Below are positions 701 through 50,143 of a stretch of DNA of 55,370 nt, one piece after another. Source of the stretch: Verrucomicrobiota bacterium (GTDB lineage Bacteria; Verrucomicrobiota; Kiritimatiellia; UBA8416; JAQBFJ01). The position numbers were made by a program, and so were the translations under genes. The notes under the pieces are model-generated. The model did not search any database, was not told the DNA's origin, and saw only the letters and a program-made list of their open reading frames with translations. Numbering within the stretch: position 1 is the stretch's first letter; each line of letters begins with the position of its first letter. The DNA is taken from NCBI GenBank assembly GCA_032123435.1, contig JAQBFJ010000157.1:1-55370 (forward strand), in the 5' to 3' direction.

Positions 701-1339
701 ATGCAGGCTATAACAGAAATTGGATTACAGAAAGCTGTGCAAGGTGTATTTACCCGGCAGGAGGCGGCCTGTTGGGTTAACAGCGATGACGCAAGTCTCG
801 ACGCCTTGCTGAAGCGGGCCGTTGCAGCAAAGGAAGTCTTGCGCCTCCGACGTGGTTTGTTCTGTCTGGCAAGCCGCTACATGCATAGCCGGATTCACGA
901 ATTTGAACTTGCCCAACGGATCCATGGCCCAAGCTACATCAGCCTCGAATCGGCTCTTGCTCATTACGGGTGGATCCCTGAAGCGGTGTATGCTGTCACC
1001 AGCGCATCAATCGAACGATCTCGTACCTTCGAGACACCGATGGGATTGTTCAGCTTTACACGCATCCCACAGCGGGAATTTTTTGCAGGGGTAAGAAGAC
1101 GGTCCCTGGAAGGTCGTGGCAGTTTCTTTCTGGCGAGCCCGCTCAAGGCGCTGGCCGACTACGTCTATGCCCACTCTTGCGACTTGGACTCCGCTGACTC
1201 CATCGTGGCGAGTCTCCGCATTGAGGAAACCGAACTGAAAACGTTGACGGTTGAAGAGTTCGACCGCCTGGCACCGGTATACAGATCCGGCCGTGTGTGT
1301 CGATTCCTGAAGGGACTCAGAAAGGATTTGAGACTATGA
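701..1339 (+). CDS. AbiEi-family type IV antitoxin / transcriptional regulator (N-terminal wHTH)
   Basis: 212 aa. The N-terminus (GVFTRQEAACW...LLKRAVAAKEVLRLRRGLFCL) matches the AbiEi_4-type wHTH pattern (G.ft..ea...l..l...G.l.rl.rGly.l). Its stop overlaps the downstream AbiEii start in ATGA. Visibly higher GC than neighbours. Confidence 0.8.
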   Translation: MQAITEIGLQKAVQGVFTRQEAACWVNSDDASLDALLKRAVAAKEVLRLRRGLFCLASRYMHSRIHEFELAQRIHGPSYISLESALAHYGWIPEAVYAVTSASIERSRTFETPMGLFSFTRIPQREFFAGVRRRSLEGRGSFFLASPLKALADYVYAHSCDLDSADSIVASLRIEETELKTLTVEEFDRLAPVYRSGRVCRFLKGLRKDLRL

Positions 1340-2181
1340 GTGTTGAAATCATCCAGGAGCGACTGGAGTCGTATGGGTGTGCGTCCGCTCTCGAGGAAGA
1401 GCAGGCACTGCGCGAGATTACTCAGGAAATCATTCTGGCCGGGCTTGGCCGAACGGACTTGTTTGGCCGTGCCGGATTTCATGGTGGCACCTGCCTGCGT
1501 ATCTTCCATAGCCTCAACCGGTTTTCCGAAGACATGGATTTTGCGCTTCGGGAACATGATGCTTCATTCACGCTTGCGCGATATCTCGATCAGGTCCGCA
1601 CCGAGTTGGTCGCCTATGGATATGACCTGGAAATCGATGACCGTTCAAAAGCTGGGCAGACCATGCAGCAAGTCTTCCTCAAGGACGACTCCGTCGGCCA
1701 GCTGCTGCGCTTGAATTACCGTCCGGGAACCGGCCCGATGCGGAAACTGCGCGTGAAACTTGAAGTGGATACCAACCCGCCGGCCGGCGCCTCCTACGAG
1801 ATGCCCGTGTTGGACTATCCGTTCCCGTCGGCGGTGCGCGTTTTCGATCTCCCCAGCCTCTTCGCAGGCAAGATCCACGCGCTACTCTGTCGCGACTACC
1901 TGAAGGGTCGGGACTGGTACGATTTTATCTGGTACACAGCACGACACACATCAATCAACTACACGTTGCTCTCTGCCGCGCTTGACCAGCAGGGCCCCTG
2001 GGCAGGAACAAAGCCGAAAACCGACAACGCATGGTGCGTGACGCAACTCGGTGTTAAAATCGGAATGCTTGACTGGAACCAGGCGAGAGAAGACGTGCGA
2101 CGATTTCTTAAACCCAGCGAACTGCCGTCTCTGTCTCTGTGGTCCTCCGAATTCTTCCTGCGGCAGTGCCGGAAACTCTGA
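1336..2181 (+). CDS. AbiEii/AbiGii-family nucleotidyltransferase toxin
   Basis: Motif FHGGTCLRIFHSLNRFSEDMDFAL matches the GGTaL...RfSeDlDF signature of AbiEii. I place the start at ATG 1336 (MSVEIIQERL), which overlaps the AbiEi stop (ATGA at 1336-1339). The track ORF starts earlier at 1297. Confidence 0.85.
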   Translation: MSVEIIQERLESYGCASALEEEQALREITQEIILAGLGRTDLFGRAGFHGGTCLRIFHSLNRFSEDMDFALREHDASFTLARYLDQVRTELVAYGYDLEIDDRSKAGQTMQQVFLKDDSVGQLLRLNYRPGTGPMRKLRVKLEVDTNPPAGASYEMPVLDYPFPSAVRVFDLPSLFAGKIHALLCRDYLKGRDWYDFIWYTARHTSINYTLLSAALDQQGPWAGTKPKTDNAWCVTQLGVKIGMLDWNQAREDVRRFLKPSELPSLSLWSSEFFLRQCRKL

Positions 2182-2323
2182 AAGGATCGACGACCTCCAC
2201 ATCCTGCAGGCGCTTGACGCAAACATCAGGCCATATTTTCTTATTTTTTTCTTGCCTGACCGCGCAATCTTCATTAAAAACCATTTGGCAACAGGTGATA
2301 CACGCCTGTTAAGGAGTAATGCC

Positions 2324-3814
2324 ATGACTAAAAACAAAAACTTGAAATCCTTCATGGAACAGTTTCCCTATGAAGGGCTCACATTCGACGACGTATCGCT
2401 TTTGACTCAATACGCCGACTTTCTCCCTGATGAAGCGAACATTGCAACACGGCTTACAACACGCATTAACCTTAATATGCCTTTTGTGAGCGCCGCAATG
2501 GATACGGTGTCGGAAGCCAGAATGTCTACTGCCATGGCATTACTGGGCGGTATCGGAATTATACACAAAAATCTTTCAATCCATGAACAAAAATCTCACG
2601 TGGCTGTTGTTAAACATCATCTACATGGCTTGATTAGAGATCCAATTGTTTTCCGATCGACCGATACCCTGCAGAAAGTTCAGGACCGGAAAGAAGACAA
2701 GGGCTACACCTTCAGCGGCTTCCCTATTCTGAATGAACAGGATAATCTGGTGGGCATTCTTACCTCGACTGACATTAAATTCTCACGCGATAAAAACGCG
2801 AAGGTGGCGAACATAATGACCATCAAAGTGGTTACAGCCCCGCCCGACACCAGCCTGCAGGACGCTTATGAAATCATGATGCAGAATAAGATCGGTAAAC
2901 TGCCGCTGATCGACAAAGGAAAGCTTATCGGTCTTTATAGCTTTACCGATGTGCGCACTCTAGTTGAAAATGTTCAACCAATGTATAACCGCGATTTAAA
3001 ATACCGGCTTCGTGTCGGTGCAGCCGTCGGACCGAATGATCATGAACGCATTGAACATCTGGCCGAAGCGGATATAGATGTGATTGTCATAGACACCGCC
3101 CACGGCCACTCTAAGGGAATCATAGATATGGTTCATTGGCTGGCAAAACATTACCCGGATATTGATATTATTGCCGGTAATATAGGCACAAAAGAAGCCG
3201 CTCTGGCTCTTCGCGATGCCGGAGTCCATGCCGTGAAAGTAGGGATTGGACCCGGTTCAATCTGTACAACCCGCGTCGTCTGTGGCGTTGGTGTGCCGCA
3301 AGTAAGCGCAGTCTATGAATGTGCCAAGGCGCTTGAAAACTCTATTCCTGTCATCGCTGACGGCGGAATAAGACATTCGGGCGATGTACCCAAGGCAATC
3401 GTCGCCGGCGCAGACTCGGTAATGCTGGGTTCAATACTCGCCGGCACCGAAGAAAGTCCCGGCGAAAAGATAATCCATCAAGGCCGTCAATATGTAGTCT
3501 ATCGCGGTATGGGCAGTCTGGCGGCTATGCAGAAGGGCGCAGGCAGTCGTGAACGATACGCGCAAAGCGCGGTTTCAGAAGATGATCTAGTTCCCCAGGG
3601 TATTGAAGGAATTGTGCCATATTCCGGAACGGTAAAAAAGGTTATGACACAATACTGCGGCGGATTGAAATCTTCCATGGGATATTGCGGATGCAGAACA
3701 ATACCTGAACTTCAGGCAAGCGGCCGTTTTATCAGGGTATCACTGGCAGGCCTGCAGGAATCTCATCCGCATGATGTTAAGATCATGAAAGAAGCGCCCA
3801 ATTACCGCTCGTAA
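2324..3814 (+). CDS. guaB: Inosine-5'-monophosphate dehydrogenase (with CBS pair)
   Basis: [20 protein letters not shown], catalytic loop [32 protein letters not shown] at 2324 is preceded by AAGGAG. The track ORF start at 2051 overlaps AbiEii and is not credible. Confidence 0.95.
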
Positions 3815-3915
3815 AACATGCCGCCTGCAGCGCCTGAAGCCGCAGGCAATGCGGGCAGGCAGAGATAAGAAGAGAGAGTTTTTACCACAGAGAGCACGGA
3901 GATTCGGAGAAGAGA

Positions 3916-3957
3916 GTTGATTTAATTTGGAAAGAGTTTTTCCGAAATTAAATCAAC
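3916..3957. repeat. Long hairpin (13+5 bp stem, one bulge, about 3-nt loop): GTTGATTTAATTTGGAAA gag TTTTTCCGAAATTAAATCAAC
   Basis: Arms verified by reverse-complementing by hand. Confidence 0.7.
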
Positions 3958-3982
3958 AATGTCCATTGAGAAGTTGTTCGGA

Positions 3983-4042
3983 CCATCGAAATCGGGATCG
4001 GTATCAAAGCACAATGAGCGAACCCGATCCCGATAGCGATGG
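3983..4042. repeat. Hairpin with 11-bp perfect core (ATCGGGATCGG / CCGATCCCGAT) extended by CCATCG/CGATGG; 22-nt loop
   Basis: Arms verified by hand. Confidence 0.6.
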
Positions 4043-4104
4043 GGTGGTTAACATGTGTCCTGTTTGAATCTCCCTCTTTCCTCCGGGTACTCGAGGATCG
4101 AGGA

Positions 4105-4899
4105 TCAAAAAGCGCCAAAAAAGATACTGGTAAACGAAATTACAGGCGAGGTCTCACGAAAATCATCAAGTGTCGCGCGAGCCTCATTTACCACACTCTT
4201 AACCTCATTATATAACTCCTCATCGTTAACCAGCTTCCCCAGCATGCCTTCGCCGCGTTCTATCTTTGCGGTTATCTCCTTTAAGGCCTTAACGGATTCG
4301 GCAAGATCATCATATAACGCTCCGTCTTTCGACAACAGCTTGCCCAACACCCCTTCGCCGGCGTTCAATCGAGTGGTAGTATCTTTAATCTGAGCTGTTG
4401 CTTCCCTGAGATTCGCTATTATTCCATCTTCATCGGTAAATCCTTCCTTTGCGGCATTCACCAATTGGGCGGCATCTGCCATCAGATCATACGGCTCTTC
4501 GCCAATAAACAGTTTCATGTTTTCCAGCACAGGCAAATCATCAGATCCCTCATAAATCTGAAGATAACGCCCGCCCAGTATGGACGTTGCCACAACCGTA
4601 ATCTTATAATCCGCCTTCATCTTCAACACTTTCTCGACCGTAATCATGATATGCACGCCATCTGCCTGCAGAGAAAGATTTTCAATCTGTCCAATGGGCA
4701 TGCCCCGAACAACAACGCTGTCCTTTTCCCTCAGACCCATGACATCATTGAAAACAATCTCCATCTGATAATGTTTCTTTCCCCACATTTCACCCGATAA
4801 TATAAAGGTGAAATACACGAGTCCAAGCAATATCATAACCATGAAAACGCCAACTATCACTTCCATGGTAAGCTCTCTGGCCATCCAATCTTTTTTCAT
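4105..4899 (-). CDS. mlaD: MlaD-like MCE-domain protein (periplasmic substrate-binding subunit of the Mla/Ttg2 ABC system)
   Basis: N-terminal TM helix followed by an MCE domain (FNDVMGLREKDSVVVRGMPIGQIENL...ATSILGGRYLQI) and a C-terminal helical region. ATG at 4899 overlaps the mlaF stop as ATGA and has an AAGGA SD. The track start at 4917 is the alternative. Confidence 0.8.
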   Translation of the reverse strand: MKKDWMARELTMEVIVGVFMVMILLGLVYFTFILSGEMWGKKHYQMEIVFNDVMGLREKDSVVVRGMPIGQIENLSLQADGVHIMITVEKVLKMKADYKITVVATSILGGRYLQIYEGSDDLPVLENMKLFIGEEPYDLMADAAQLVNAAKEGFTDEDGIIANLREATAQIKDTTTRLNAGEGVLGKLLSKDGALYDDLAESVKALKEITAKIERGEGMLGKLVNDEELYNEVKSVVNEARATLDDFRETSPVISFTSIFFGAF

Positions 4900-5657
4900 C
4901 TCGATTTCCTTTCCCATACACCTTGCTTAGTTATGAACTGAGCCTCAAGAAAACTTCTGACACCTGGATTTGTGGATTTAATAAACTCGTCCGGTGTCGA
5001 TATATGAACAATCTTGCCGTCCTGCAGCATCGCTATCCTCGACCCTATCGACAAAGCACTGTGAAGATCATGCGTTACCACAACGCTCGTAATACCCAGC
5101 TCTTTGTTCATCCTGCTGATTAACGCGTCTATTGTCCGGGCTGTCACGGGATCAAGTCCGGAAGTAGGTTCGTCATAAAGCACTATTTCGGGATTCCTTA
5201 CAATAGCGCGCGCAAGCCCGGCTCTTTTCTGCATACCGCCTGAAATCTCAGAGGGCTTTTTTTCTCCATCCTCCCCAAGTCCTACCAGTTCAAGCATATG
5301 CCGCGCCTTCTTCCTGATCTCCTCGTCACTCATACGTGTTTTTTCACGCAACGGCAGGGCGACGTTCTCCATCACCGTAAGCCACGCAATAAGCGCACCA
5401 CCCTGGAAAAGATACCCGAACTTTTCACGCACTCTTTCGAGTTCCTGTCCTACCGCGCTACTGATTAGAACGCCGTCAACAAAAACGTCTCCGTCATCCG
5501 GCGTCATGAATCGAACCATATGTTTCAATGTAACACTCTTGCCCGCCCCGGACGGGCCAACAATAACAAAGACTTCTCCAGCCTGCACTTCAAAGCTTAC
5601 GTTATCGAGAACCACGCTACTGCCAAACGATTTTGAAACTTTTTCCAACTTTATCAT
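4896..5657 (-). CDS. mlaF: MlaF-like ABC transporter ATP-binding protein
   Basis: Walker A GPSGAGKS, signature SGGMQKRAGLARA, Walker B VLYDEPTSGLD. ATG at 5657 (MIKLEKV) is preceded by GGAG with 5-nt spacing. Confidence 0.85.
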   Translation of the reverse strand: MIKLEKVSKSFGSSVVLDNVSFEVQAGEVFVIVGPSGAGKSVTLKHMVRFMTPDDGDVFVDGVLISSAVGQELERVREKFGYLFQGGALIAWLTVMENVALPLREKTRMSDEEIRKKARHMLELVGLGEDGEKKPSEISGGMQKRAGLARAIVRNPEIVLYDEPTSGLDPVTARTIDALISRMNKELGITSVVVTHDLHSALSIGSRIAMLQDGKIVHISTPDEFIKSTNPGVRSFLEAQFITKQGVWERKSR

Positions 5658-5731
5658 TGTATCTCCACGCGAAATCAATCCGCCGCCCCTGGCGCACATT
5701 ATTCATGAAGAATGCACGCTAGCATACATCA

Positions 5732-6544
5732 TCAGTAATAAAACAATCCCGTAAGCAATAAACCGGCAACAAGAATCGTCAGGAACGAAACGATTACAGC
5801 TTTTCTTGTCGCGGCCCCCACGCCTATCGCGCCATGGGTAGCTGCGAAACCTTCATAACACGATACAATTGTTATAATTATACCAAAGATAACCGCTTTA
5901 AGCTGGCCGACATACAGGTCTTTCACCTTGCCGAACCGTAATGCATTGTCTATGTAAACATCCCACGATACACCCAGCAAACAATAAGCGACCACCCCGC
6001 CTCCAACAACGCCCATAACACAGGTATAAAAAGACAGCAGCGGCGTCATAATGCTCATTGCCACCAAGCGCGGCATTACAAGAAACCGCACTGGATCAAT
6101 GGACATTATTTCAAGAGCGGCAATTTCTTCTGAAACTACCATTGTGCCCAGCTGCGCGGCCATAGCCGACCCCACACATGCCGCTAAAATCAGCCCTGTC
6201 ATAAACGGCCCCATCTCCCTTAACATCGAAACAAGCACCGCCACACCAACATGCGCCTCCTTATTATACTCACGAAGCGCAATCCCGGTGTTCAAGGCCA
6301 GTATCATGCCGGTAAAAACAGCAACAACCGTAATCACACCAAGACTCTTTATTCCATACACATACATTTGCACAATCGTTTCGCGCCTTGAACGCGGCGA
6401 AAAGACATGCGCGAGATTCGCAATAGAATGCATCAGCAGAATAGTGCCTTGCCCAACAGCCCTGCAGTAAAACAGTATCATCCTTCCAACCCGGCCCAAT
6501 AAGCCGGAGGAAGGCGGAAAATATTCTGGTTCTCTAGTTATCAT
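5732..6544 (-). CDS. mlaE: MlaE-like ABC transporter permease
   Basis: 270 aa, polytopic, typical MlaE layout (QMYVYGIKSLGVITV..., LREMGPFMTGLILA..., AAQLGTM). The first ATG (6544) overlaps the stop of the upstream lipoprotein gene by 11 nt. Confidence 0.85.
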   Translation of the reverse strand: MITREPEYFPPSSGLLGRVGRMILFYCRAVGQGTILLMHSIANLAHVFSPRSRRETIVQMYVYGIKSLGVITVVAVFTGMILALNTGIALREYNKEAHVGVAVLVSMLREMGPFMTGLILAACVGSAMAAQLGTMVVSEEIAALEIMSIDPVRFLVMPRLVAMSIMTPLLSFYTCVMGVVGGGVVAYCLLGVSWDVYIDNALRFGKVKDLYVGQLKAVIFGIIITIVSCYEGFAATHGAIGVGAATRKAVIVSFLTILVAGLLLTGLFYY

Positions 6545-8009
6545 CCTTTTTATCCCCGCAATGAATCTTGATAACGTATAATATCTTATACGTTCTTTGC
6601 AAACCCTTGGTTTTACAACCAATCAATCCCATCAAAATGTTCCATTCTCTGCTCCCATCGCCATCCGTTGTTTTTTCGGATGAAAACAGGGGGAATAGTG
6701 AAATATGACCTCCTTCAGCGCCATCCGAGCGCCGATGAAACAAGCCCCATAGAACCTCATCTTCAACAACTTCGCCCGTTCTTTCATGTGAATATAAACT
6801 CCATATGGGTGCCAGGTTGCGTTCAACGGCGGGCGTACGTTTAAGCGGCCAAAGCGCGAGCATTCTGAACCGCGCATCGGCTTCCCTGCGCTCGTAAGAC
6901 AAAAGAGGCCAAAATTTGAAATATCTCTCGCCAACCCTGTCCTCGGCAGATTCATTGCTGTCATCCTTAATCAACATTTTCTCATGATAAACCAAAGGCA
7001 GGATATTAAATCTTTTTAACACCGACTCGTTACGCGTTATTTCCTCAGTATTTATTATCGGCCATAGCGCGAATGAAGATTTAACCTGGCCGACTGTCTT
7101 GCGGCCCCACAAGGGCCATATGTACAACTTGGCGGGATCCCCTGATCTATATTGAAATAACGGCCACGGACAATTCAACTCCATGCTTTCCTTGCCGTAA
7201 CCAAGTTTGAAAAGAGGCGGCAAAAAAGTCCACGACCTGTTCTCACCAGCTTTTGCCTGGCCATATAGAGGAAATAAGACAAAACCACCGCCCTGCTGAT
7301 CGGGATATTGATACCGGACAGAACTCCACAAGGGCCATAAAACAAATCTTTTGGTCCACCTGTTCCGATTAAACGACTGCCCATAAAGCGGGAACAATCT
7401 GAACCGTGATACATCTTCTCCTTTTGACCACGATATTAAGGGCCAAATCACATCATATGTTTCCACGTCATCAACGGAACTATGCGTGTAAAGCGGAAAA
7501 AGCGCGAAGTTTATCTTGTCCCGCCCCAGAAATTCATGAATCTTGCCGCCAATTGGAAACACTGCAAAATATTTCGAGCCTTCCTTATCCCGTCCAGTGT
7601 ACAAAACGGGAAAAACAATGAAGCGTTTTCTGGATTCCGGATCAGCATTATCGAAATCATGACCAAACGCCGACAGAAAGCGCCAGTAAGTTTCTCCGCG
7701 ATACTGTTTGATCATTCCAACAGGCCAGAGAAACTCCTGAAGTGAACGATCCCTGGCAGGTTCAGTCGTAGAGCTATAAAACGGCCGCACGGCAGTAAAC
7801 ACCATGCCCGCATCATCTTTCTGTCTTTCAACAAAAGGACCCAGCGCGCGAACTCGTTCTGCGCCAGTTGGGTCAATATCGGCACATGAAAGGAAACCTA
7901 TATCCCACTCTCTGGCGGGAATGGTAGAGCATGACGTCAGGCTCAAACATGAACAGGCGAGCATGCACGACAAAAAACATGATATTAACTCAGAGGTGTT
8001 TTTCGGCAT
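6534..8009 (-). CDS. Lipoprotein built from about 15 tandem W/F-P-L-(Y/W/F) repeat units; function unknown
   Basis: Signal peptide with lipobox LTSC (Cys27). Recurring FPLY/WPLW/WPLF/FPLF units every 17-22 aa across almost the whole mature protein. The ATG lies 17 nt upstream of the pyrB-like stop codon (20-nt gene overlap), and its own stop overlaps mlaE. Confidence 0.7.
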   Translation of the reverse strand: MPKNTSELISCFLSCMLACSCLSLTSCSTIPAREWDIGFLSCADIDPTGAERVRALGPFVERQKDDAGMVFTAVRPFYSSTTEPARDRSLQEFLWPVGMIKQYRGETYWRFLSAFGHDFDNADPESRKRFIVFPVLYTGRDKEGSKYFAVFPIGGKIHEFLGRDKINFALFPLYTHSSVDDVETYDVIWPLISWSKGEDVSRFRLFPLYGQSFNRNRWTKRFVLWPLWSSVRYQYPDQQGGGFVLFPLYGQAKAGENRSWTFLPPLFKLGYGKESMELNCPWPLFQYRSGDPAKLYIWPLWGRKTVGQVKSSFALWPIINTEEITRNESVLKRFNILPLVYHEKMLIKDDSNESAEDRVGERYFKFWPLLSYERREADARFRMLALWPLKRTPAVERNLAPIWSLYSHERTGEVVEDEVLWGLFHRRSDGAEGGHISLFPLFSSEKTTDGDGSREWNILMGLIGCKTKGLQRTYKILYVIKIHCGDKKDDN

Positions 8010-9063
8010 AATTATTTATTTTCTTCTCACATCCAAACATCTGGGCAATAAGTGCCGCCCTGATCCACATGCCGTTCCTCATTTGCCGCCAATATACCGC
8101 ACGCGGATCATGATCAATTTCGGGTGAGATCTCACTGCGCCTTGGCAAAGGATGCATGATAATCGCATCTTTTTTCATGAGTGCCATCTGTTCAGGACCT
8201 ATTGAATATTTCGAAATGTCTATCCGCGCGCTTTCGCCTTGATTTATGTCCCATTCATCCTGAACACGAGTCATGTAAACAGCGTCCATTGCCGGTATCT
8301 GACCGGTAAAATCATCGCTCAACTCATACTTCACGCCATGTTCCCGGAGCTGATCCTGAATATCCTGTCCTATCTGCAGTTTAGCAGGTGCAACAAAACA
8401 CTGCTCCACATCGTTATACTTGGCTAACAGAATGGATAAAGACCGCACGGTGCGTCCACGCGCCAGATCACCCACAAAAAGAACCCGTTTCCCGTCTATA
8501 CCCCCTCTTTTTTCAAAACTCCGCTGAAGTGTATAAATATCTAATAATGCCTGCGTGGGATGCTGATCTTTTCCAGAACCAGCGTTGATTATCGGAATAG
8601 GTCGTTCGGAGTTCGATAACACCCATGCCATCCTCGTAGCCAGCCCCGATTCCTTCGACCGCATTATTATCATATCAAAATATGAACTGAACGTGCGTAC
8701 CGAATCTTCCTGCGATTCACCCTTGAACTCACTTGATGTAGCTGTATCACGCACATTACCGACATTCATTCCCAGAATTTGACAAGCAGATAAGAAAGAC
8801 AGGAACGTTCTCGTACTCGGCTGGGTAAAATATAACATCGCATGCCTATGCGAAAGCAGCCCTTGTAGAAATTTTGCTCCTTCTTCCTTCTTGGCAATGA
8901 AACGGATTCTCGTCGCGAGACTGCCCAGCTCATCAAGATATCTGCGATCAAACTGCTGGGCTAATAACAGATGGACAGGCCGACCGTTTTCCATGAAACA
9001 TTCCGCCTTTTCCGTCATATCGAGCCGTTCAAACTTTTCCCATGAAATTTCTTTCAGCCGCAT
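7990..9063 (-). CDS. pyrB: Aspartate carbamoyltransferase-like protein (ATCase/OTCase superfamily, ATCase-type HPLPR motif)
   Basis: FTQPSTRTFLSF (carbamoyl-phosphate motif), KGES, HPTQALLDIYTL, FVGDLARGRTVRS, IMHPLPRRSEI, QMRNGMWIRAAL. The start is uncertain: ATG 9063 has a GGGAG SD at good spacing, and ATG 9069 and TTG 9114 are alternatives. Confidence 0.75.
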   Translation of the reverse strand: MRLKEISWEKFERLDMTEKAECFMENGRPVHLLLAQQFDRRYLDELGSLATRIRFIAKKEEGAKFLQGLLSHRHAMLYFTQPSTRTFLSFLSACQILGMNVGNVRDTATSSEFKGESQEDSVRTFSSYFDMIIMRSKESGLATRMAWVLSNSERPIPIINAGSGKDQHPTQALLDIYTLQRSFEKRGGIDGKRVLFVGDLARGRTVRSLSILLAKYNDVEQCFVAPAKLQIGQDIQDQLREHGVKYELSDDFTGQIPAMDAVYMTRVQDEWDINQGESARIDISKYSIGPEQMALMKKDAIIMHPLPRRSEISPEIDHDPRAVYWRQMRNGMWIRAALIAQMFGCEKKINNYAEKHL

Positions 9064-9125
9064 TGCCATTCTCCCATTATCATGACGCAAAAGACCAACC
9101 AGCCCGCAGAGCAATCACAGCTTAT

Positions 9126-10139
9126 CTACGAACCCAGGACCGCTGCAAGTAAAGCCTTTATTGTATGCATTCTGTTCTCAGCTTCATCAAAAGCCCTTGA
9201 AAAAGGTGCTTGAAACACTTCATCCGTCACCTCCAGCGCGCCCGTATCCCTGGTCACTTCTGTTTTATTATCATGGAATGCAGGTAAACAATGAAGAAAA
9301 ATCAGATTGCCGTTTTCCATGTTGCCCGTCTGCTTAATCAGGTTCATGTCCACCTGATAAGGCCGCAAAAGCTTTATTCTCTGCGCCTGTTTCGATTCCT
9401 CGCCCATTGAAAACCATACATCCGTACAAATCACATTGGCACCTGCAACAGCAGTTGAAATATCGCTGTCAACAACGACACTGCCGCCATTTTCAGAAGC
9501 CTTTTTCTGTACGTCTTTTATATCTTCAGAAGCTGGATAAAGTTCCGGCGGCGTGCAATCAACAAAATGCATTCCAGCCTTCGCGCATCCCAGCATCAGT
9601 GACATGGCCACGTTGTTTCTGCCATCACCAACATAAACTGCCTTTAACCCCTTTAACCTGCCGAAATGCTCCTTTATTGTCATCAGATCAGCCAAAGCCT
9701 GCGTCGGATGAGCTTCATCAGTAAGCCCGTTCCAAACCGGCACTCCGGAATATTGAGCCATCTGTTTTACAGTATCCTGCTTGTAACCCCGGAAAAGTAT
9801 CCCGTCGAACATCCGGCCAAGCACCCGGGCAGTATCAGCAACTGATTCCTTCTTCCCGATATGTATTTCGTTTGCGGACAGATATTCCGCATTGCCGCCT
9901 TCATCAGCCACGGCAACAGTCGTTGCACATCTGGTTCTTGTAGACATCTTTTCAAAAATAAGCGCTATGTTGCGTCCACAAAGCAGACTGCCCTTTGCTT
10001 TCATCTGCTTCTTCTTCTTAAGACCAATCGCCAGATCCAGAAGATCCATCATTTCCTTGTCCGAAAGGTCGTTCAAAGTCAGAAGTGACCTGCCTTGCAG
10101 AAAAGCTTCTTTAAATCCATAGTTATCACATGTTTCCAT
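9126..10139 (-). CDS. argF: Ornithine carbamoyltransferase
   Basis: FEKMSTRTRCA, HPTQALADLMTI, YVGDGRNNVAMSL, FLHCLPAFHD. ATG 10139 is preceded by AGGAG at 8 nt. The track start at 10160 lacks an SD. Confidence 0.85.
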   Translation of the reverse strand: METCDNYGFKEAFLQGRSLLTLNDLSDKEMMDLLDLAIGLKKKKQMKAKGSLLCGRNIALIFEKMSTRTRCATTVAVADEGGNAEYLSANEIHIGKKESVADTARVLGRMFDGILFRGYKQDTVKQMAQYSGVPVWNGLTDEAHPTQALADLMTIKEHFGRLKGLKAVYVGDGRNNVAMSLMLGCAKAGMHFVDCTPPELYPASEDIKDVQKKASENGGSVVVDSDISTAVAGANVICTDVWFSMGEESKQAQRIKLLRPYQVDMNLIKQTGNMENGNLIFLHCLPAFHDNKTEVTRDTGALEVTDEVFQAPFSRAFDEAENRMHTIKALLAAVLGS

Positions 10140-10232
10140 CGCACTAGCTCCTGCTACCATTTGTCTTCATAACATGCCCGATATTACAGACCGTTAACTG
10201 ATAAAGGCAAAACAATTCTTTTCCCGCCGTTC

Positions 10233-10268: not shown

Positions 10269-11159
10269 ATGAAAGCCCAGCCAGACTGCATCGCCTGTAT
10301 GTTTAAACAGGCCCTTAATACAATAAGAATACTCACAGACAGCACCGAAACCCAGACCAAGGTCATGCGTTCTCTGGCGCACAGGGTCGCTGATACACTT
10401 TCTCTCAATAAAACACCCGCTGCACTTTCTCAGCCGGTATACGAAATTATAACGGAAATCACCGGCATCGCGGATCCTTACGAAAATATAAAAACCGAAA
10501 CCAACAGGCTTGCGCTTTCTTTACTGCCTGACTTGACTAACCGCGTGCACAATGCGGCCGACCCGCTTGACGCAGCACTCCATGTCGCCGCCGCCGGAAA
10601 CATAATCGATCTGGGAATCGGTCATGAATTCGATATGGAAAAAGACATAGTTCGAATTATGGACCAGCCTTTTACCATAAACGCTATCGAAGATTTCAGG
10701 ACCGAGCTTCGCAGACATAAAAACGTGCTTTATCTGGGCGACAACGCGGGTGAAATAGTGTTCGACACCATTCTCGTCGAACATATTATTAAAATAGGCG
10801 CATCCGTGACGTTCGTCGTGAAGTCAGGTCCGATCATCAATGATGCCACCATTATTGACGCTGAAATCTCTGGAATGACAAAACTAGCGCCCGTAATAGA
10901 AACCGGATCCAGCGATATCGGAATAAACTGGAACAGGGTTTCCCCGGAATTTCGTCAGGCCTTCGAAACTGCCGATATCATAATAGGCAAAGGCCACGGC
11001 AATTTTGAAACATGTAATGAACGTCCTGAAAATATTTATTTCCTGTTGAAAGCCAAATGCGACATGGTAGCACATAATTTAGGCGTGCAATTCGGTGATA
11101 TCGTGTTTAAACATTCTGCGGGACAAAACAGCAAAACCTCTAACCCGCATATTTCATGA
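10269..11159 (+). CDS. DUF89 (ARMT1-like) damage-control phosphatase family protein
   Basis: N-terminal CIAC, LYLGDNAGEIVFD and IIGKGHGNFE motifs typical of DUF89. Confidence 0.8.
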   Translation: MKAQPDCIACMFKQALNTIRILTDSTETQTKVMRSLAHRVADTLSLNKTPAALSQPVYEIITEITGIADPYENIKTETNRLALSLLPDLTNRVHNAADPLDAALHVAAAGNIIDLGIGHEFDMEKDIVRIMDQPFTINAIEDFRTELRRHKNVLYLGDNAGEIVFDTILVEHIIKIGASVTFVVKSGPIINDATIIDAEISGMTKLAPVIETGSSDIGINWNRVSPEFRQAFETADIIIGKGHGNFETCNERPENIYFLLKAKCDMVAHNLGVQFGDIVFKHSAGQNSKTSNPHIS

Positions 11160-14811: not shown

Positions 14812-15588
14812 ATGGGCCTCATAAAAATAAATTACGACGTTACTGATGTCGGTCATCATAAACACCTTTATCTCAGTCCGGCCATGTTTCGTACATTCAA
14901 CGTCAGCACACTCGGATTGGGCGATATATCAAAACGCGGCGACCATATGGATGTTCTCGCCGCGATATATGATCTTGAAGAATTCACTTCGTTCTGCAGT
15001 CAAATTGATCCACATCTCGTCGTCCCGAAATATCTGGACCAGATGTTAAACTGGTTATTCGAGGAAATAGCGACAAATTTCACAAAGGAATACCACCAGG
15101 ATAAAGTAATCCTTTGGGGTAAATTCCCGTTTTTTACAAAGTTTCTGGGCGACGGTATAATGTTCCTGTGGGACACAAAAGGGCTTGGACCGGCATCTCT
15201 GGGCAATATAGTCATCAACCTTTATAAAGTCTGCTCCGGCTATACGGCTAATTTTCTGCCCGATGTTAAACACGATTTCGTTGACGCACCGCCCAAACTG
15301 CGCTGTGGTATTGCCAGGGGCGAAGTCACCGTGATAGGAGGCGGCAAGGATTTTGTAGGGCCCTGCATCAATGAAGCGGCCCGCCTACAGAAGGTCAGTC
15401 AGCTTTCATTCGCGTTCGCGAGGAAAGGGTTCGATCCCAGAGATTGTTTCAGCGATACATGGCAGGCTGAATTCATGCTTAAAAGAATATCAATCAGAGG
15501 CATAGCGAAAGACGAGCTGGTCATGATCTGCAGAAAGGAATTCGAACAACTTCCGGATTCCGAGAAACACTTATTTAAAGAGCCATAA
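14812..15588 (+). CDS. Stand-alone class III nucleotidyl (adenylate/guanylate-type) cyclase homology domain protein
   Basis: Ordered cyclase motifs: VLAAIYDLEEFTSF (first metal Asp, D...FT), KFLGDGIMFLW (second metal Asp), RCGIARGEVTVIGG, FVGPCINEAARLQ. No TM, sensor or receiver domain. GAGGA SD 6 nt upstream. Confidence 0.75.
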   Translation: MGLIKINYDVTDVGHHKHLYLSPAMFRTFNVSTLGLGDISKRGDHMDVLAAIYDLEEFTSFCSQIDPHLVVPKYLDQMLNWLFEEIATNFTKEYHQDKVILWGKFPFFTKFLGDGIMFLWDTKGLGPASLGNIVINLYKVCSGYTANFLPDVKHDFVDAPPKLRCGIARGEVTVIGGGKDFVGPCINEAARLQKVSQLSFAFARKGFDPRDCFSDTWQAEFMLKRISIRGIAKDELVMICRKEFEQLPDSEKHLFKEP

Positions 15589-15613
15589 TTAAACTTAAAC
15601 CCGACAAAAATCT

Positions 15614-17503
15614 ATGAACAGACATGCTTCCGCTCCCGACAAAAGAGCAAAACACGACGATGCCCGGAAAATCAACCTTGCGGACGCCGATAAGCTGATC
15701 CAGGCAATGGCAACCCTCGTTAACAATACGCTACATCATTACTGGCTGTCTAACTCAGATGCTCACGATGCCACGATAGAATGCGCCTCGTTAGCGATCA
15801 AGATACTTGATGAATACGAAGAAATCGCCTTCCGCATTTTTGACGGCGCTCTGCTGTTAAACGGCATGACTATCGAGAAAAAAACAGCGGCCATAAAGAT
15901 CCTGGCTCAACACCTGACGGATCTTGAAATACATAATTTTTCTCTGCTTAAAGGCTTGTCGGATAACGACTTCATCAAACTCATTGAAATTCTGGGCGCG
16001 ACACCATTCGAGATTAAACAGCTTGGCGGTTTTCAAAAACTCCTTGCCGATTTCGATTTGAAGCATATCGAGGCTAAAACACTTATCTTCCGTGAGATAA
16101 CAGAGGAAGAGACTATTGTCTATAAAGACGAAATCCAGCCCGGCTCAACGTCTGCGTCTGGCGATACCAATGAAAAGGAAACCATTGAAGGAAATATTCT
16201 CGCCTTCCTGAAAGGCGATATATCACTTTCCGAAGAAGAGGCGGCCAAAGAGATTCAGGATATCGCTACCGATGCACAAAAAATGGCCGAACTGATCATT
16301 AAGGCGGCAGAAGTAAAAAAAGCATCCACCCCTATCGAGAACGGCGAAAGCCTTGTTGATTTCGTCGTCGGATCACTCAAACGAACTTATCGAAGCCTCA
16401 TGAACGATAAATCCGCTAAAACAAAAACAGGCCAGAAACGGATTACGCGAAACCTGCTCCTTGTCGAAGAGGAAATACTTAACCGCATGCGGGAAATGTC
16501 CGAAGAATGGACCGAAGAAGATTTCAAGAATGTTACCGAGGCGCGGACGGAAATAACCGACGAGCTCAAAATAGATTCCGTTTCCGATGATTTCATTACA
16601 AAACAAAAAGCCAGCGAACGAACCGAAAAACAAATGCTGAAACTCGTAAATTCCATGGGAATCAGGAACCTTAACGATCTCCAGCAGAAACTGCTGAGTA
16701 AAGGACTCAGCCCGGAAGGCTGGCGTGACCTCGTGATAAAAAGTAAACACGGCGAAACAGGAAGACGAGGACAGGGCGGGGACGGGAACGGGGGCAAGGG
16801 CCGTGGAGCCGGGAAGGGCGAAGGACTTTTGGACGGTTCGGGCGATCAGCCTTTGCAGGACGGCAAGGGCGCCGGGGACAGTCTCGGTATCGACATCGGA
16901 CTCGGAGGCGCTGGAACAGGCGGTTTTGATTTCGGGCTCAATAAAGTACTCGACGCTCTTGGACACCTTGATGTGCTTCTGACTCAGATGGAAAACGAAG
17001 TAGACGATAAAAATACAGACGCCGGAATAAAAAATGCAAATATCAATAAAGTCATCACCACGGTCCAGGAAATAAACCAACAGGTTAAGGACGATGTAAG
17101 TGTTACGGAAGAGAAAATAGACCTGTTCGTCGATAACCTTCTTATGGACGAATCCACAATTCCAAGCGCCGACCCAACCGACCCGAAATCAAAAACCATC
17201 GAAAAATCAGGCAAAAAAGGCATTTTTGACTCTCTCGTCGAAATTATCGACAACATTTACGAGCCGCTTCTTACAATACAATCCTCTCTCCATGTCCTTA
17301 CATCAAACACTTTGGGCAATATGAACCAGCATCAATCGAACATACTGCATATTGCCGTGGAAAATGTTGAAAGAATAAAGGACTCTCTCGAGTACCTGAA
17401 AAATAAACATCCTGCCCGCGCGTCTTCACGACTCAATACTCAAGATCCGACGCAAGAAGAAAACTCAGACGGTGGTCCAGATCTTCAGAATGCCTTCCTC
17501 TGA
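15614..17503 (+). CDS. 629-aa hypothetical protein: N-terminal alpha/beta-like module, charged helical region, Gly-rich low-complexity segment, C-terminal HisKA-like helix lacking the His
   Basis: Long uninterrupted ORF 25 nt after the cyclase gene on the same strand. No catalytic motif recognised. The start codon has no SD, so the exact start is uncertain. Confidence 0.6.
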   Translation: MNRHASAPDKRAKHDDARKINLADADKLIQAMATLVNNTLHHYWLSNSDAHDATIECASLAIKILDEYEEIAFRIFDGALLLNGMTIEKKTAAIKILAQHLTDLEIHNFSLLKGLSDNDFIKLIEILGATPFEIKQLGGFQKLLADFDLKHIEAKTLIFREITEEETIVYKDEIQPGSTSASGDTNEKETIEGNILAFLKGDISLSEEEAAKEIQDIATDAQKMAELIIKAAEVKKASTPIENGESLVDFVVGSLKRTYRSLMNDKSAKTKTGQKRITRNLLLVEEEILNRMREMSEEWTEEDFKNVTEARTEITDELKIDSVSDDFITKQKASERTEKQMLKLVNSMGIRNLNDLQQKLLSKGLSPEGWRDLVIKSKHGETGRRGQGGDGNGGKGRGAGKGEGLLDGSGDQPLQDGKGAGDSLGIDIGLGGAGTGGFDFGLNKVLDALGHLDVLLTQMENEVDDKNTDAGIKNANINKVITTVQEINQQVKDDVSVTEEKIDLFVDNLLMDESTIPSADPTDPKSKTIEKSGKKGIFDSLVEIIDNIYEPLLTIQSSLHVLTSNTLGNMNQHQSNILHIAVENVERIKDSLEYLKNKHPARASSRLNTQDPTQEENSDGGPDLQNAFL

Positions 17504-34172: not shown

Positions 34173-34982
34173 TCACTTTTCCTGAATATCAATGCCAAGC
34201 ATAGAAAGAGATTGTCTGATCATTATATCACAAAATCGGGCTCCTTTTTCGCCTGCACGTAATTTTCCCCTGTACGCCCAATATACAGCATGCGATTCTG
34301 GCCGGAGCCAGTCTAAGGGGCCATATCTGACGTCAATTTCCAGCATGATTTCTGGAAGCAACTTGTACTCATCGCGCATCTTGTCCTCAATCTCAGCACC
34401 CAACCCGGCGTAATCAAGCGTGGCACCGCCTAAAAGTCCTTTCATTTCTTTAGCGAACATTTGCTTGTAATATATGCCTGACGCACCCGTCGCACGCCCA
34501 ATTTTATTCTGGTACAGCCACCCCAGTTCACGGTAAAGCGCAGGATCATCCGGATTATAAACCAGACCTTCGTCACGCAAAAGACTTATGCCGTTCTTTA
34601 TCCAACGCCAGCCGTCAGCAGGATCCGACATCATAACACTGATGTTATACGCCATGTTCCAGGCATGATATGCCCACACTTCCGTTGAGCCTGGTTCAAG
34701 TTTTGTAATCCAGTTGGATAACTGGACCATCTCAAAATATTCACCTTTTTCCTGCATGTATGATACCCTGAGCCATAGGACATCGGCTATTAGTCCGCGG
34801 AACCCGCCCAGTACCACCGTGCTGAAAACCATGATTGGTGATGCGTTTATCAGATTGACGGAAAAACCGAACCCGTAATCGGCACGCTTGCCGGCTAAAG
34901 CAACATTCTGTCTCCCACCCAACCCGAAACAGAGAAGGGAACAGCAAAACAGGAGCACTGAAATTATCCGCCTTATGATCAC
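34173..34982 (-). CDS. Membrane-anchored helical-repeat (TPR-like) hypothetical protein
   Basis: 269 aa. N-terminal hydrophobic anchor. Motifs GGFRGLIADVLWLR, WAYHAWNMAYNISV and LYRELGWLYQNK suggest alpha-helical repeats. No family name could be assigned from memory. Confidence 0.55.
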   Translation of the reverse strand: MIIRRIISVLLFCCSLLCFGLGGRQNVALAGKRADYGFGFSVNLINASPIMVFSTVVLGGFRGLIADVLWLRVSYMQEKGEYFEMVQLSNWITKLEPGSTEVWAYHAWNMAYNISVMMSDPADGWRWIKNGISLLRDEGLVYNPDDPALYRELGWLYQNKIGRATGASGIYYKQMFAKEMKGLLGGATLDYAGLGAEIEDKMRDEYKLLPEIMLEIDVRYGPLDWLRPESHAVYWAYRGKLRAGEKGARFCDIMIRQSLSMLGIDIQEK

Positions 34983-34992
34983 ACTTTTCTTC

Positions 34993-36369
34993 CTATATAA
35001 TGGGTAAAGCTAATTCTCTTTTTTTCAGCAGATACACACCAATTACACCCAGGCTAAACGGGTATAGAATAAAGAGCAGAAAGAGAGCCTTGCCCGTGAA
35101 TTCCCAAGATACAACCATGCCGTTCACCATGAGCGGCACGGGATCATATCCGGTCAGGGACGAAATAAAATATTCAACCCCGTTTATGACCTTATGCATG
35201 GCAATCTGCACTTCCGACACCTTGTAACCTAGCTCTAAACAGCGACTGCACGTGTGTATAGGCTGATTCGTTAATACTACAAAACGGGCTATAAACAGCA
35301 TTACAACCGCCGCATAAGACGCAAATACCGCCACTGGAAACGAAAAGACAGCGCTCGCAGTCAAACCAAAAGCCGAAAGAAGCCCCATATAAAAGAAAAT
35401 AACGACAATAGCGCGTAAAAAGTTCATTTTGAATCCACTCCAGCGAACCAATAATTTCAGCCCGTCATCAATATCAAACATGGCTGTTGCCGCCTGTTCG
35501 CCGGCATCATTGATAAATGTTACTACCGTTGGGATTCCAGCCGGGATAGCAGAAGCAGGCACAAGTATGCTGTGCGAACCTGCCCGACATTTGTCCATTG
35601 TTGAACGGAATATATCAGGCTTTTGTTCAGTACCCACAAGCCAAACGCCGCTCACCGTTTTCCTGTCCATACCGGCAGATACCAGATGGAACCGCAGATA
35701 TACTGAAACATTACTGTCGCCGCACGAGAACGGCTTAAACACCCAGCGTTTTGACTGGCCTGGCGCCACGGTCGACTTCTCCGACAGAACGCGTCTCTTT
35801 GTTTTTGTATAGATCTCCTGGTAAGGCATGTCCTCCGGAATCCTGTCGTTCTCAACAAGCCAATCCATTCGCTGATGAATTTCATCATCAAAAGATTCTG
35901 ATAAAGATGTTATGCTTTTTCGGCCAACAAGTATCTCGCTATAAACACCGGTACGCTCAATATCGTCCGCATGAGAATTTTTGATCCGCCAGCATAGCAA
36001 TGCATATACTGTAACACCGACAAAAGACAGCAGTATCGCGCTCATAAGTAATAGACCGAACCATTTGCCCAGCCATATCTGATAACGATGCACTGGCTTC
36101 GTTACAATAAGCTGTATCTGCTTCTCCTGAATATCATGCGCTATCGTTCCACATGCTGACCACAGTACGACGGATCCAAGAATGATAGCGGCTAAACCAA
36201 GTGTATACTGCAGTAGTATTGTAATATCACCCGCGAGCGTGCCATCACCCTTGGCAGTAAGCGGAAGCCCGATAACCGTAATGGCAAGCACAACCATTAA
36301 CGACACAAAAAGCTTGGACCGCACAGCCGTTTTGAATGCCAGCAAAGCTATTGCCGCGATTTTAGTCAC
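34993..36369 (-). CDS. ABC-2-type permease with an inserted extracytoplasmic domain of about 200 aa
   Basis: Three N-terminal TM helices with an ABC-2-like EKQIQLIVTKPVHRYQIWLGKW segment, a soluble insert (about aa 126-325), then further TM helices. The start overlaps the ATPase gene stop by 8 nt. Confidence 0.7.
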   Translation of the reverse strand: MTKIAAIALLAFKTAVRSKLFVSLMVVLAITVIGLPLTAKGDGTLAGDITILLQYTLGLAAIILGSVVLWSACGTIAHDIQEKQIQLIVTKPVHRYQIWLGKWFGLLLMSAILLSFVGVTVYALLCWRIKNSHADDIERTGVYSEILVGRKSITSLSESFDDEIHQRMDWLVENDRIPEDMPYQEIYTKTKRRVLSEKSTVAPGQSKRWVFKPFSCGDSNVSVYLRFHLVSAGMDRKTVSGVWLVGTEQKPDIFRSTMDKCRAGSHSILVPASAIPAGIPTVVTFINDAGEQAATAMFDIDDGLKLLVRWSGFKMNFLRAIVVIFFYMGLLSAFGLTASAVFSFPVAVFASYAAVVMLFIARFVVLTNQPIHTCSRCLELGYKVSEVQIAMHKVINGVEYFISSLTGYDPVPLMVNGMVVSWEFTGKALFLLFILYPFSLGVIGVYLLKKRELALPII

Positions 36370-37279
36370 TGCTCAAATACTCCGCAACACTGTCGGGACA
36401 CGATTCTTCCGAGTCCTTATGCGCCTGTTTCACCACTTCTATAAAGATCTGTTCCAGATTCTTGGAAGGTCTATCTATCTCGGGATCCTGGTTAATCGCT
36501 TTTCTGATAAGGGCAAGCACTTCTTTTGTCTTTTCAGGAGAAAGCGAAGGGATTGTCAACCTCATGCTTTCCCGTTCTTCCAGTAATTCATTAATCCTGC
36601 CGCACACACGAGTCCTTCCTTTATAAAGGATGACCACACGATCACAAACATCCTCTACATCAGCCAGCAAGTGAGACGACAGGAGAATCGTCTTGCCGCG
36701 TTGCGCCAGAGTCAACATTAAATCCTTGACCTGTCTACAGCCTATCGGATCAAGACCCGACGTTGGTTCATCCAGGATAACAAGTTGCGGATCATTAATC
36801 AGTGCTTGCGCCAGACCGACGCGACGTGCCATGCCTTTGGAGAACTCTCCGACGGGTCTGTCTGCCTCGCGCGTCAAACCAGCCATGTTTAAAAGTTGAC
36901 TAATACGCTCTTTACGGGCTGTTCCTGTCATATCAAACAGACGCCCATAAAACTCCAACGCCTCGCGCGCAGTCAAATACGGATATAAATATGATTCTTC
37001 CGGAAGATACCCTATGTTGCTCTTGGCCTTCACACTGCATGGTGATGCTCCCATGACGCTCACTTCACCTGAAGAAGGATGAAGCAAGCCAAGAAGTATT
37101 TTTATAGTCGTGCTCTTACCAGACCCATTAGGCCCAAGAAGCCCAAAGATTTCGCCGCGTTTGACTTCCAGATCCAGCCCGTCAACCGCGCACACTTTTG
37201 GGCGTCGCCAGAAATCACGGAAGATCTTTGTAAGATTAGTCACCTTGATAACAGGCTCACCGTTTATAGTACTGCTCAT
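36362..37279 (-). CDS. ABC transporter ATP-binding protein (ABC-2/CcmA-NosF-like)
   Basis: Walker A GPNGSGKST, signature FSKGMARRVGLAQA, Walker B LVILDEPTSGLD. ATG 37279 is preceded by GAGGAG. Confidence 0.9.
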   Translation of the reverse strand: MSSTINGEPVIKVTNLTKIFRDFWRRPKVCAVDGLDLEVKRGEIFGLLGPNGSGKSTTIKILLGLLHPSSGEVSVMGASPCSVKAKSNIGYLPEESYLYPYLTAREALEFYGRLFDMTGTARKERISQLLNMAGLTREADRPVGEFSKGMARRVGLAQALINDPQLVILDEPTSGLDPIGCRQVKDLMLTLAQRGKTILLSSHLLADVEDVCDRVVILYKGRTRVCGRINELLEERESMRLTIPSLSPEKTKEVLALIRKAINQDPEIDRPSKNLEQIFIEVVKQAHKDSEESCPDSVAEYLSSD

Positions 37280-37341
37280 GATTCTCCTCATAGCTGCATT
37301 CATTCACGATCATGACATAACCACGAGTCCGGATCGACATT

Positions 37342-50000: not shown

Positions 50001-50121
50001 AACATTCGTATGCCTGATCGTCACCCTCCTCGTCATGCCCGCACTGCTCACAGCTTTAAGAAAATTATCGTTCTCCCACGAGGAAGATACGTTCAACCTG
50101 GAAGAAGAGGAAGAAGACTAA
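47098..50121 (+). CDS. RND-superfamily / MMPL-type exporter (COG1033-like) with an enlarged second soluble domain
   Basis: 1007 aa. Two hydrophobic blocks (about aa 255-425 and 825-985), each preceded by a large soluble domain. GTG start preceded by AAGAGGA at 5 nt. Family assignment is by architecture and N-terminal similarity only. Confidence 0.65.
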   Translation: MKHIITDSSIRKPKHIISLMLIITAIFVTPLFHLEFENNREHSLPQDSPVLANCIQASRKFDLEDSIIVGIVNEEHPDGVFNIQTLTRIYNLTSQLSSLRCGANDGKAVITIPANDHQQRKILVLDLSRRKLIDYLFMKNHNSLFDEHGNSVINIKGIISPSTVVNIKRGEIGMLKSEPLVPSPPATRDEALVIRKDALGNSLYAGTLFSEDGKAACIYIPINDVSRAHIVSRLVTMLTKDWHDETTVLITGPSIIQDQFNREMLLYVVISTIIMLICAFCVMTALFHGFVSLAVAPVISAIITIICSLGVMTALGIKADAASCIAVFFLIIVAIMNSVHVLSEFFDACYKFNNKNLAIRNVSIRLFKPMIYANIAITAGFIALTTTSGPAIRAFGTLSAIGTIIAWLLAITFIPAYVIIAISPKTLSAIWDLSYRHHERPDWLGGTLRSLGIFNCMQWKPIITLTAVTCAILLVGTRWCSLNSNSVGNFAPYHTVQTSNNMLRKHLPGTHLIHLSLHSAQPRTLNYMEKISIMRSEAQKRFAPIFPQATKIFTAKLNGLEQLYLNATSGSAGKHFATLVREAEDVDRQALVSWNELANALVYVNPENLSMNKLAREILKAKNVDYNDKKLLLARLEEHVNLKDIPLLDKTLEICSEFTRLSFREFVFEMEAELNAPPFKQASMLNYINTLQSFLMKNSSVAKTTSAVDALKQVSYELNYATFPGYDNISSPAYNTGRNSTDSLIPRSASAADKMFTQLEGLKNNTYLRRFVTKDFQNANIQIQLKTSSTRNVNKLITDINNFMLSNPPPVKLNIAWTGPAYMDTLWQHITLNSITRPAFYSFITIIMVIMLLFRSPLYGLLGAIPLLMTMVFIFGLMGFARIQINTTTAILAAVIFAISVDFTVNFLERARLIQARHKSWHKACLKMFHEPTAAITRNTIIVSISFLSLIALPLTPCKTAGWLIAVGTFVCLIVTLLVMPALLTALRKLSFSHEEDTFNLEEEEED

Positions 50122-50143
50122 CCAAGTCGCTCGCTCACCATCT

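Follow-up and report, generated by a model that had tools for sequence, protein, structure and literature searches.

The window analysed here is the whole stretch of 55,370 nucleotides of contig JAQBFJ010000157.1 (assembly GCA_032123435.1), from a Verrucomicrobiota bacterium of the class Kiritimatiellia. This work concerns an open reading frame at 6534..8009 on its minus strand, the product of which we call REP, and the three mla-like genes that follow it. According to Pfam and NCBIfam, the three genes encode the parts of an MCE-type ABC transporter, namely an MlaE permease, an ABC ATPase and an MCE-domain protein (Table 1). A preliminary description of this DNA had placed the repeat lipoprotein gene inside an Mla operon, but it stands at the 5' end of the mla-like genes.

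The REP gene and the transporter genes that follow it

The REP reading frame ends at 6534-6536 and mlaE opens with an ATG at 6544 (MITREPEYF...), which gives the 11-nt overlap already reported for the two genes. At its other end, the REP gene is overlapped by 20 nt by the carbamoyltransferase-like gene upstream. REP is probably translationally coupled to the transporter genes. A scan of the window for promoters and terminators returned fewer sites than were found in shuffled sequence.

The N-terminus of REP reads MPKNTSELISCFLSCMLACSCLSLTSC, followed by Ser, and contains a lipobox (L-T-S-C) with Cys27 as the candidate for lipidation. The hydrophobic segment LISCFLSCMLACSCLSL precedes the lipobox, which fits the pattern [LVI][ASTVI][GAS]C of signal peptidase II substrates, and the closest homologue (P0002) has LASC followed by Ser at the same place. 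REP is read as the preliminary description read it: the 491-aa product is predicted to be acylated, and it is a secreted, probably lipid-anchored protein.

Table 1. Positions of the REP gene, the transporter genes and the genes directly upstream in the window
Feature	Position	Strand	Basis or remark
REP gene	6534..8009	-	First-start-to-stop open reading frame, 491 aa; belongs to a family without a name
Signal peptide with lipobox LTSC (Cys27)	7929..8009	-	Predicted from sequence; AlphaFold2 helix 5-29
Beta-hairpin repeat body of REP, residues 35-484	6558..7907	-	Predicted 46 strands, ~22 hairpins of ~18 aa; [WF]-Pro in alternate turns
mlaE-like permease	5732..6544	-	PF02405, E 4.7e-65
mlaF-like ABC ATPase	4896..5699	-	PF00005, E 3.9e-31; NF008809 (MlaF), E 3.3e-56, below its cut-off
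mlaD-like MCE protein, 270 aa	4105..4917	-	PF02470, E 7.4e-13; transmembrane helix, MCE domain, helical needle, conserved tail
MlaD helical needle region, residues 145-256	4150..4485	-	AlphaFold2; two 'GEGxLGKLxxDxxLY' modules
MlaD C-terminal tail, RETSPVISFTSIFFGAF-COOH	4108..4158	-	Follows RETxPxxxFxSxFFGAF
Two tandem aspartate/ornithine carbamoyltransferase paralogues	7990..9114 and 9126..10160	-	Directly upstream of REP; the nearer one overlaps REP

The MlaD protein of the window is of the needle type. Its AlphaFold2 model has helices at residues 145-161, 166-186, 190-197, 200-220, 225-231 and 233-256, and PF28544 (Helical_needle) matches homologues of the protein. The best full-length Foldseek matches to the model are Mce1 subunits, followed by MlaD MCE domains. 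Mycobacterial Mce1 (PDB 8FED/8FEF) is the best structural match that includes the needle, the tip of which is built in Mce1 by the C-terminal segments of six chains; Mce1 differs in being a hetero-hexamer that has other accessory proteins and no REP-like subunit. The sole PDB sequence match to reach into the needle is 13hr, a Mce/MlaD protein of 312 aa, which we infer from its equal length to be PA3213. The ~110 helical residues of the window protein would span ~165 Å if extended, comparable with the rod of ~170 Å in PA3213 (PMC13631591). MlaD homologues fall into length classes of ~264-270, 296-307, 330-341 and 364-374 aa, with the window protein in the shortest. The classes lie ~34 aa apart and correspond to 2-5 copies of the needle module 'GEGxLGKLxxDDxLY'.

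The most conserved part of MlaD is its C-terminal tail. The pattern RETxPxxxFxSxFFGAF is present, with few substitutions, in all 69 of the 69 REP-linked MlaD copies, and the whole proteins are ~35-55% identical. In one locus (L080), the REP operon has another MCE operon 3 kb upstream of it (1480..4898), which encodes an MlaE-like protein, an ATPase and a 325-aa MCE protein. The latter has a different C-terminus, and its gene is followed by one for a 301-aa Ala-rich lipoprotein. This arrangement is compatible with every MCE system having a tail and a partner of its own.

The operon was earlier assigned to the Mla pathway, and this assignment had to be given up in favour of a needle-type MCE system on the strength of the Helical_needle match, the helices at 145-256 and the structural matches to Mce1. 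A Pfam scan of the 36 large open reading frames of the window detected no MlaA, MlaC or STAS domain, in agreement with the earlier remark that no MlaA, MlaC or MlaB gene was visible. The canonical six-gene Mla pathway was rejected on this account and because MlaD carries a helical extension of ~110 residues. Phylogenomics suggests that a minimal MlaEFD core in which MlaD is long serves most bacteria and is ancestral, and that MlaABC is mostly proteobacterial (Grasekamp et al., PMC10665443). In Veillonella parvula, a minimal MlaEFD core likewise has an elongated MlaD that is proposed to bridge the envelope (PMC10665443). That protein ends in a fused 10-stranded C-terminal barrel, whereas REP is a separate polypeptide and unlike a membrane barrel.

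The preliminary description proposed a check on whether REP is found where mlaA is lacking, but the relatives Kiritimatiella glycovorans and Victivallis vadensis do have MlaA. These two species and other Lentisphaeria carry two MlaD/MlaE sets together with MlaA elsewhere and sometimes MlaC, and K. glycovorans has MlaC as well as MlaA (PMC10665443 supplement). Because the relatives possess MlaA and a second MCE set, the REP operon is best seen as a distinct, coexisting needle-type system and REP not as a replacement for MlaA. MlaA (VacJ), which works with OmpC/F, resembles REP in being a lipoprotein that acts with an MlaFED-type ABC/MCE complex. Unlike REP, MlaA is alpha-helical and operates through soluble MlaC and a short MlaD; REP is predicted to be all-beta, lacks PF04333 and is found with an MlaD that has a needle.

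We examined conservation of the locus in the 80 best REP loci, which come from Kiritimatiellia and Lentisphaeria genomes. The gene directly after REP is mlaE in all 79 loci that extend far enough. Of the 70 loci in which 2.7 kb or more of downstream DNA is available, 66 have mlaE-mlaF-mlaD in this order after REP. The median distance from the REP stop codon to mlaE is about -3 nt. Adjacency to mlaE holds at 38-62% sequence identity and where the upstream genes differ. The carbamoyltransferase pair is kept in only ~35 of the 80 loci, and REP is therefore linked to the transporter and not to the neighbourhood as a whole. In four loci from Victivallales/Kiritimatiellae metagenome-assembled genomes (L008, L013, L039 and L072), mlaE is not followed by mlaF/mlaD. 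One of these (L013, 10298..16672) has AAA-ATPase-like and type I restriction-modification-like genes of the defence type after mlaE, an arrangement that may be an insertion or an assembly join.

The linkage was also approached from the other end of the operon, by scanning metagenome contigs for DNA that encodes the FFGAF tail of MlaD. This search gave 120 tail matches, of which 105 end an open reading frame fitting the MlaD profile. Where at least 3.3 kb of upstream DNA was available, REP was present upstream of 31 of 35 MlaD genes. The proposal that REP is a lineage-specific component tied to an MlaEFD-like transporter thus withstood both the synteny check in relatives and the reverse test. 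As far as gene order and reading frames can tell, REP is very probably a dedicated subunit of a needle-type MCE transporter.

Family, repeats and predicted fold of REP

REP belongs to a family without a name, as the preliminary description had supposed. Neither Pfam (E ≤ 0.1) nor NCBIfam gave a match to REP, the family profile had no match among PDB sequences even at E = 10, and a Pfam scan of 90 members taken singly (E ≤ 1) gave no consistent match. PF03886 (ABC_trans_aux), PF04333 (MlaA/VacJ), PF05494 (MlaC) and LptD/OstA matched neither REP nor any of the 90 members. We found no description of the family in the literature. The 347 close homologues are all annotated as 'hypothetical', and the family comprises 2185 clusters at 50% identity (E ≤ 1e-3), 794 of them with E < 1e-30. 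Relatives were found in 293 species-representative genomes; the named sources are all Kiritimatiellia, Lentisphaeria/Victivallales or unplaced 'Verrucomicrobia/PVC' metagenome-assembled genomes. For the representatives of the most divergent clusters, a look-up returned no names of taxa.

A lipobox is present in 88 of the 195 classifiable members and a plain hydrophobic signal peptide in 99. Thus, the lipid anchor proposed earlier stands for REP of the window, but only ~45% of classifiable family members have a lipobox. Judged by these N-termini, export is a trait of the family and lipid anchoring is not. The residue after the lipobox Cys is A, V or S in the sampled members and never Asp. No domain fusions were found in the longer homologues, in which the additional length consists of a Pro/Ser-rich tether or a loop.

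Strict [WF]P[LIV] motifs number 14 in the mature protein (16 under a relaxed pattern) and are spaced 16-21 aa apart in its core, whereas 20,000 shuffles of the same sequence gave 0.6 strict motifs on average and 6 at most. When the repeats are anchored on Pro/Gly turns, ~21 units are obtained, and the unit consensus is kept over 90 homologues. Autocorrelation of the profile peaks at 18, 36, 54, 73, 92, 109, 127 and 145 aa, which are multiples of ~18.3 aa. Non-overlapping segments of REP aligned to one another in hhalign with up to 97% probability (E 1.6e-11 over 70 columns). From the segment alignments and the autocorrelation, we conclude that the repeats are genuine internal duplications, as the tandem W/F-P-L units noticed earlier had suggested. 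The autocorrelation revealed no super-period of two hairpins. A six-fold (4-hairpin) super-repeat that would match the MlaD hexamer was also considered and is unsupported by the same analysis.

An AlphaFold2 model of REP, built on a 90-sequence alignment, has a mean predicted local distance difference test score (pLDDT) of 92.9 and a predicted template modelling score (pTM) of 0.80. It begins with a signal helix, after which come 46 strands, each of 5-8 residues, joined by turns that are nearly all 2-5 residues long. In this model, the body of REP is one continuous antiparallel beta-meander of ~22 hairpins. The W/F-Pro motif forms the turn of every second loop and not the start of a strand. 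When 15 repeats are averaged, only positions -4, -2, -1, +1 and +2 from the Pro show high hydrophobicity, and values are near zero elsewhere on both faces of the sheet. Because hydrophobicity is confined to the surroundings of the turn Pro, one long edge of the sheet is greasy and aromatic and the other edge is polar. The greasy edge is often flanked by Arg or Lys.

Foldseek searches of the model against PDB and BFVD, a check proposed in the preliminary description, yielded nothing beyond generic all-beta structures (WD40 proteins, the teneurin YD shell, OspA and the TCP10 single-layer sheet) with a template modelling score (TM) of at most 0.2 on the query, so no characterised fold was matched. 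The best local match was the TCP10 sheet, with a TM of 0.45 on the target. Several candidate folds and functions were rejected. A beta-propeller does not agree with the tight turns, which lack longer connections, with the missing 2-hairpin period or with the TM of at most 0.15 to WD40, YWTD and BamB structures. A transmembrane beta-barrel would be expected to have strands of ~9 residues or more and hydrophobicity that alternates along them, but the strands of REP are shorter and its hydrophobicity is limited to one edge, at -4 to +2 around the Pro. The earlier suggestion of beta-hairpin repeats is thus upheld by the model, and the barrel and propeller offered along with it are both unlikely. 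An enzymatic role was rejected for want of a conserved set of His, Ser or Cys residues in REP; the conserved polar residues are E61, R75, R110, D164, R204, Q286, R382, R397 and N398.

Covariation was analysed by mean-field, reduced-alphabet direct coupling analysis of 308-335 non-redundant REP sequences, which is noisy for long-range pairs. Of the top 400 pairs, 114 connect adjacent strands, and among the top 200 there are 113 that lie within 30 residues, in keeping with the modelled meander. The strongest long-range covariation links residues 59-79 with residues 398-480 (pairs 77-455, 59-411, 79-398, 77-443, 75-402 and 77-480). This block, which was defined post hoc, holds 6 of the top 60 long-range pairs versus 1.7 expected. 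The result suggests, as a lead only, that the N- and C-terminal ends of REP meet.

Proposed role of REP and its alternatives

The closest functional parallel comes from the Pqi-type systems, in which the needle of PqiB/PA3213 is encircled at its tip by a ring of the lipoprotein PqiC/PA3214, with a hydrophobic groove that takes up the seven C-terminal residues of the MCE protein (PMC13631591). As with REP, the lipoprotein is encoded in a needle-type MCE operon, and the PA3211-14 operon also encodes MlaE-like, MlaF-like and single-MCE-plus-needle subunits. The C-terminal peptide of PA3213/PqiB gives specificity (PMC13631591), and it is this end of the protein that is most conserved in the window MlaD. 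There are also differences. PqiC-like proteins are mixed alpha/beta protomers of ~190-210 aa that assemble into octameric rings, whereas REP is a single all-beta chain of 491 aa in its predicted form; they have no sequence match to REP, and lipid anchoring is not conserved in the REP family. By sequence and by predicted fold, REP falls outside the PqiC family, and we do not count it among the members.

We propose that REP works at the end of the needle that faces the outer membrane, where it captures the tails of MlaD. The proposal is based on the analogy with PqiC, the lipobox, the hydrophobic edge and the invariant MlaD tail. Six copies of MlaD would form an MCE ring at the inner membrane and a helical needle, with ~110 residues per chain, across the periplasm. 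REP would sit at the far end, held at the outer membrane by its N-terminal lipid; members without a lipobox would be held instead by the hydrophobic row of W/F-Pro hairpin tips. By capturing the hydrophobic C-terminal tails of MlaD, REP would dock or cap the needle, and the docked needle would let lipid pass between its lumen and the inner leaflet of the outer membrane. REP would in this way play the part that the PqiC/PA3214 ring plays for PqiB/PA3213, by means of an unrelated single-chain beta-repeat fold. Taken as a whole, we judge this statement to be evenly balanced between right and wrong.

A number of observations weigh against it. The MlaD tail could, as in Mce1 (PMC10665443), form a small six-stranded barrel at the tip of the needle and would then have no need of REP. 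The REP gene adjoins mlaE and not mlaD, whereas PqiC-like genes come after the MCE gene. Other genes follow mlaE in 4 of the 70 loci, which have no mlaF/mlaD nearby, and 4 of the 35 tail-bearing operons have other genes or rearrangements in the place of REP. The length of the MlaD needle shows no correlation with that of the REP tether or body (rho 0.12 and 0.16, respectively). The lipid anchor is missing from about half of the family, and some members with a lipobox have Pro/Ser-rich tethers of 50-90 residues, so that contact with the membrane is not assured. Finally, the predicted meander may be a ring, a coil or a ribbon.

The covariation of the N-terminal hairpins with the C-terminal quarter of REP is the ground for a more specific picture. 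REP could be a new fold in which one chain closes into a ring, sets its continuous hydrophobic rim of W/F-Pro turns in the inner leaflet of the outer membrane and receives the six MlaD tails. We regard this version as rather doubtful.

REP might instead be an accessory or regulator on the inner-membrane side, placed on the periplasmic face of MlaE or on the MCE ring and, for example, gating the entry of lipid. The position of its gene, which adjoins and overlaps mlaE, is what this reading would predict, as are the unbroken adjacency to mlaE (79 of 79 loci) where mlaF and mlaD are missing from four loci and a lipid anchor that half of the family can dispense with. Under this reading, neither the invariant MlaD tail nor the distal end of the needle would have anything to bind, and the absence of Asp after the lipobox Cys also speaks against it, an argument that is relevant only if the E. 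coli sorting rule holds here. We consider an inner-membrane location unlikely.

A periplasmic carrier or adaptor, which would take the role of MlaC and pass substrate to or from the MCE complex, would account for the members with only a plain signal peptide (about half), for the operon having no MlaC and for the long hydrophobic stripe, which would need to be covered by lipid or protein. Needle-type MCE systems, however, are considered to span the envelope with no shuttle involved (PMC10665443; PMC13631591). REP of the window and many of its relatives are lipoproteins with short tethers, by their predicted N-termini, and the size of ~50 kDa and the repeat architecture are unlike those of known carriers. 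The invariant tail of MlaD would again go unexplained, and we hold a carrier role to be distinctly unlikely.

It is very unlikely that REP is an integral outer-membrane beta-barrel that serves as a lipid channel. Barrels of the TGD4/LptD type partner the chloroplast TGD1-3 MCE transporter; they are all-beta and form its proposed outer-membrane end. REP shares with them a predicted all-beta build of 46 antiparallel strands, and half of its family has a plain signal peptide like those of outer-membrane proteins. A conserved, aromatic-rich C-terminal strand (consensus RLLYFLKF) lies near the C-terminus, although not at the very end, and covariation brings the N- and C-terminal parts together. REP has no LptD/OstA Pfam match, however, and its strands, at just 5-8 residues and with turns of 2-4 residues at either side, are not long enough to cross a bilayer. 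The hydrophobicity of one edge does not alternate along whole strands, many members are lipoproteins and the Foldseek TM to barrels is at most 0.19. Least probable is a role for REP that has nothing to do with the transporter, such as binding glycans or serving as an envelope scaffold, in which case the two would simply share a transcript: the carbamoyltransferase-like gene upstream also overlaps REP, but adjacency to mlaE persists at 38-62% identity and in differing upstream contexts, and the reverse test points the same way.

Other genes of the window and significance

Beyond the REP operon and the carbamoyltransferase pair, an ARMT1-like/DUF89 gene at 10269..11159 (+) is a conserved neighbour, and in one Kiritimatiellae genome (L081, 1001..4922) such a gene adjoins lpxI and lpxB, which act in lipid A synthesis. 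At 701..2181 (+), an AbiEii nucleotidyltransferase toxin (PF08843, E 7e-28) is preceded by a 212-aa open reading frame with no Pfam match; this is probably an AbiEi/AbiEii type IV toxin-antitoxin pair. Adjacent open reading frames of 258 and 629 aa at 14812..17503 (+) have no Pfam match, and the second contains a Gly-rich stretch of low complexity. On the minus strand at 34173..38340, an ABC ATPase gene (36362..37303) is flanked by open reading frames of 269, 458 and 332 aa, also with no Pfam match. A 1007-aa membrane protein of the MMPL/RND type is encoded at 47098..51403 (+), followed by an M48 (CAAX-type) peptidase. A DDE transposase (PF01609) lies at 52903..54684 (-), where the guanine-cytosine skew, otherwise strongly negative in the window, is about zero.

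How phospholipids and other lipids travel from one membrane of diderm bacteria to the other remains an open question, and most of the work has been done in Proteobacteria. MlaD of the PVC group never has a C-terminal barrel of the Veillonella type, and unidentified partner proteins have been postulated for it (PMC10665443). REP is a concrete candidate for this partner of barrel-less long MlaD proteins. What is new here is a large family that is absent from Pfam-A and NCBIfam and has no sequence or fold match in PDB. If the proposed role is correct, REP would be a second means, unrelated in structure to the first, by which an MCE needle docks at the outer membrane. Should REP also prove to be a closed ring, it would be the outer-membrane terminus, of a class new to science, of MCE lipid conduits that cross the envelope and would explain how the barrel-less MlaD of Kiritimatiellia and Lentisphaeria reaches the outer membrane.

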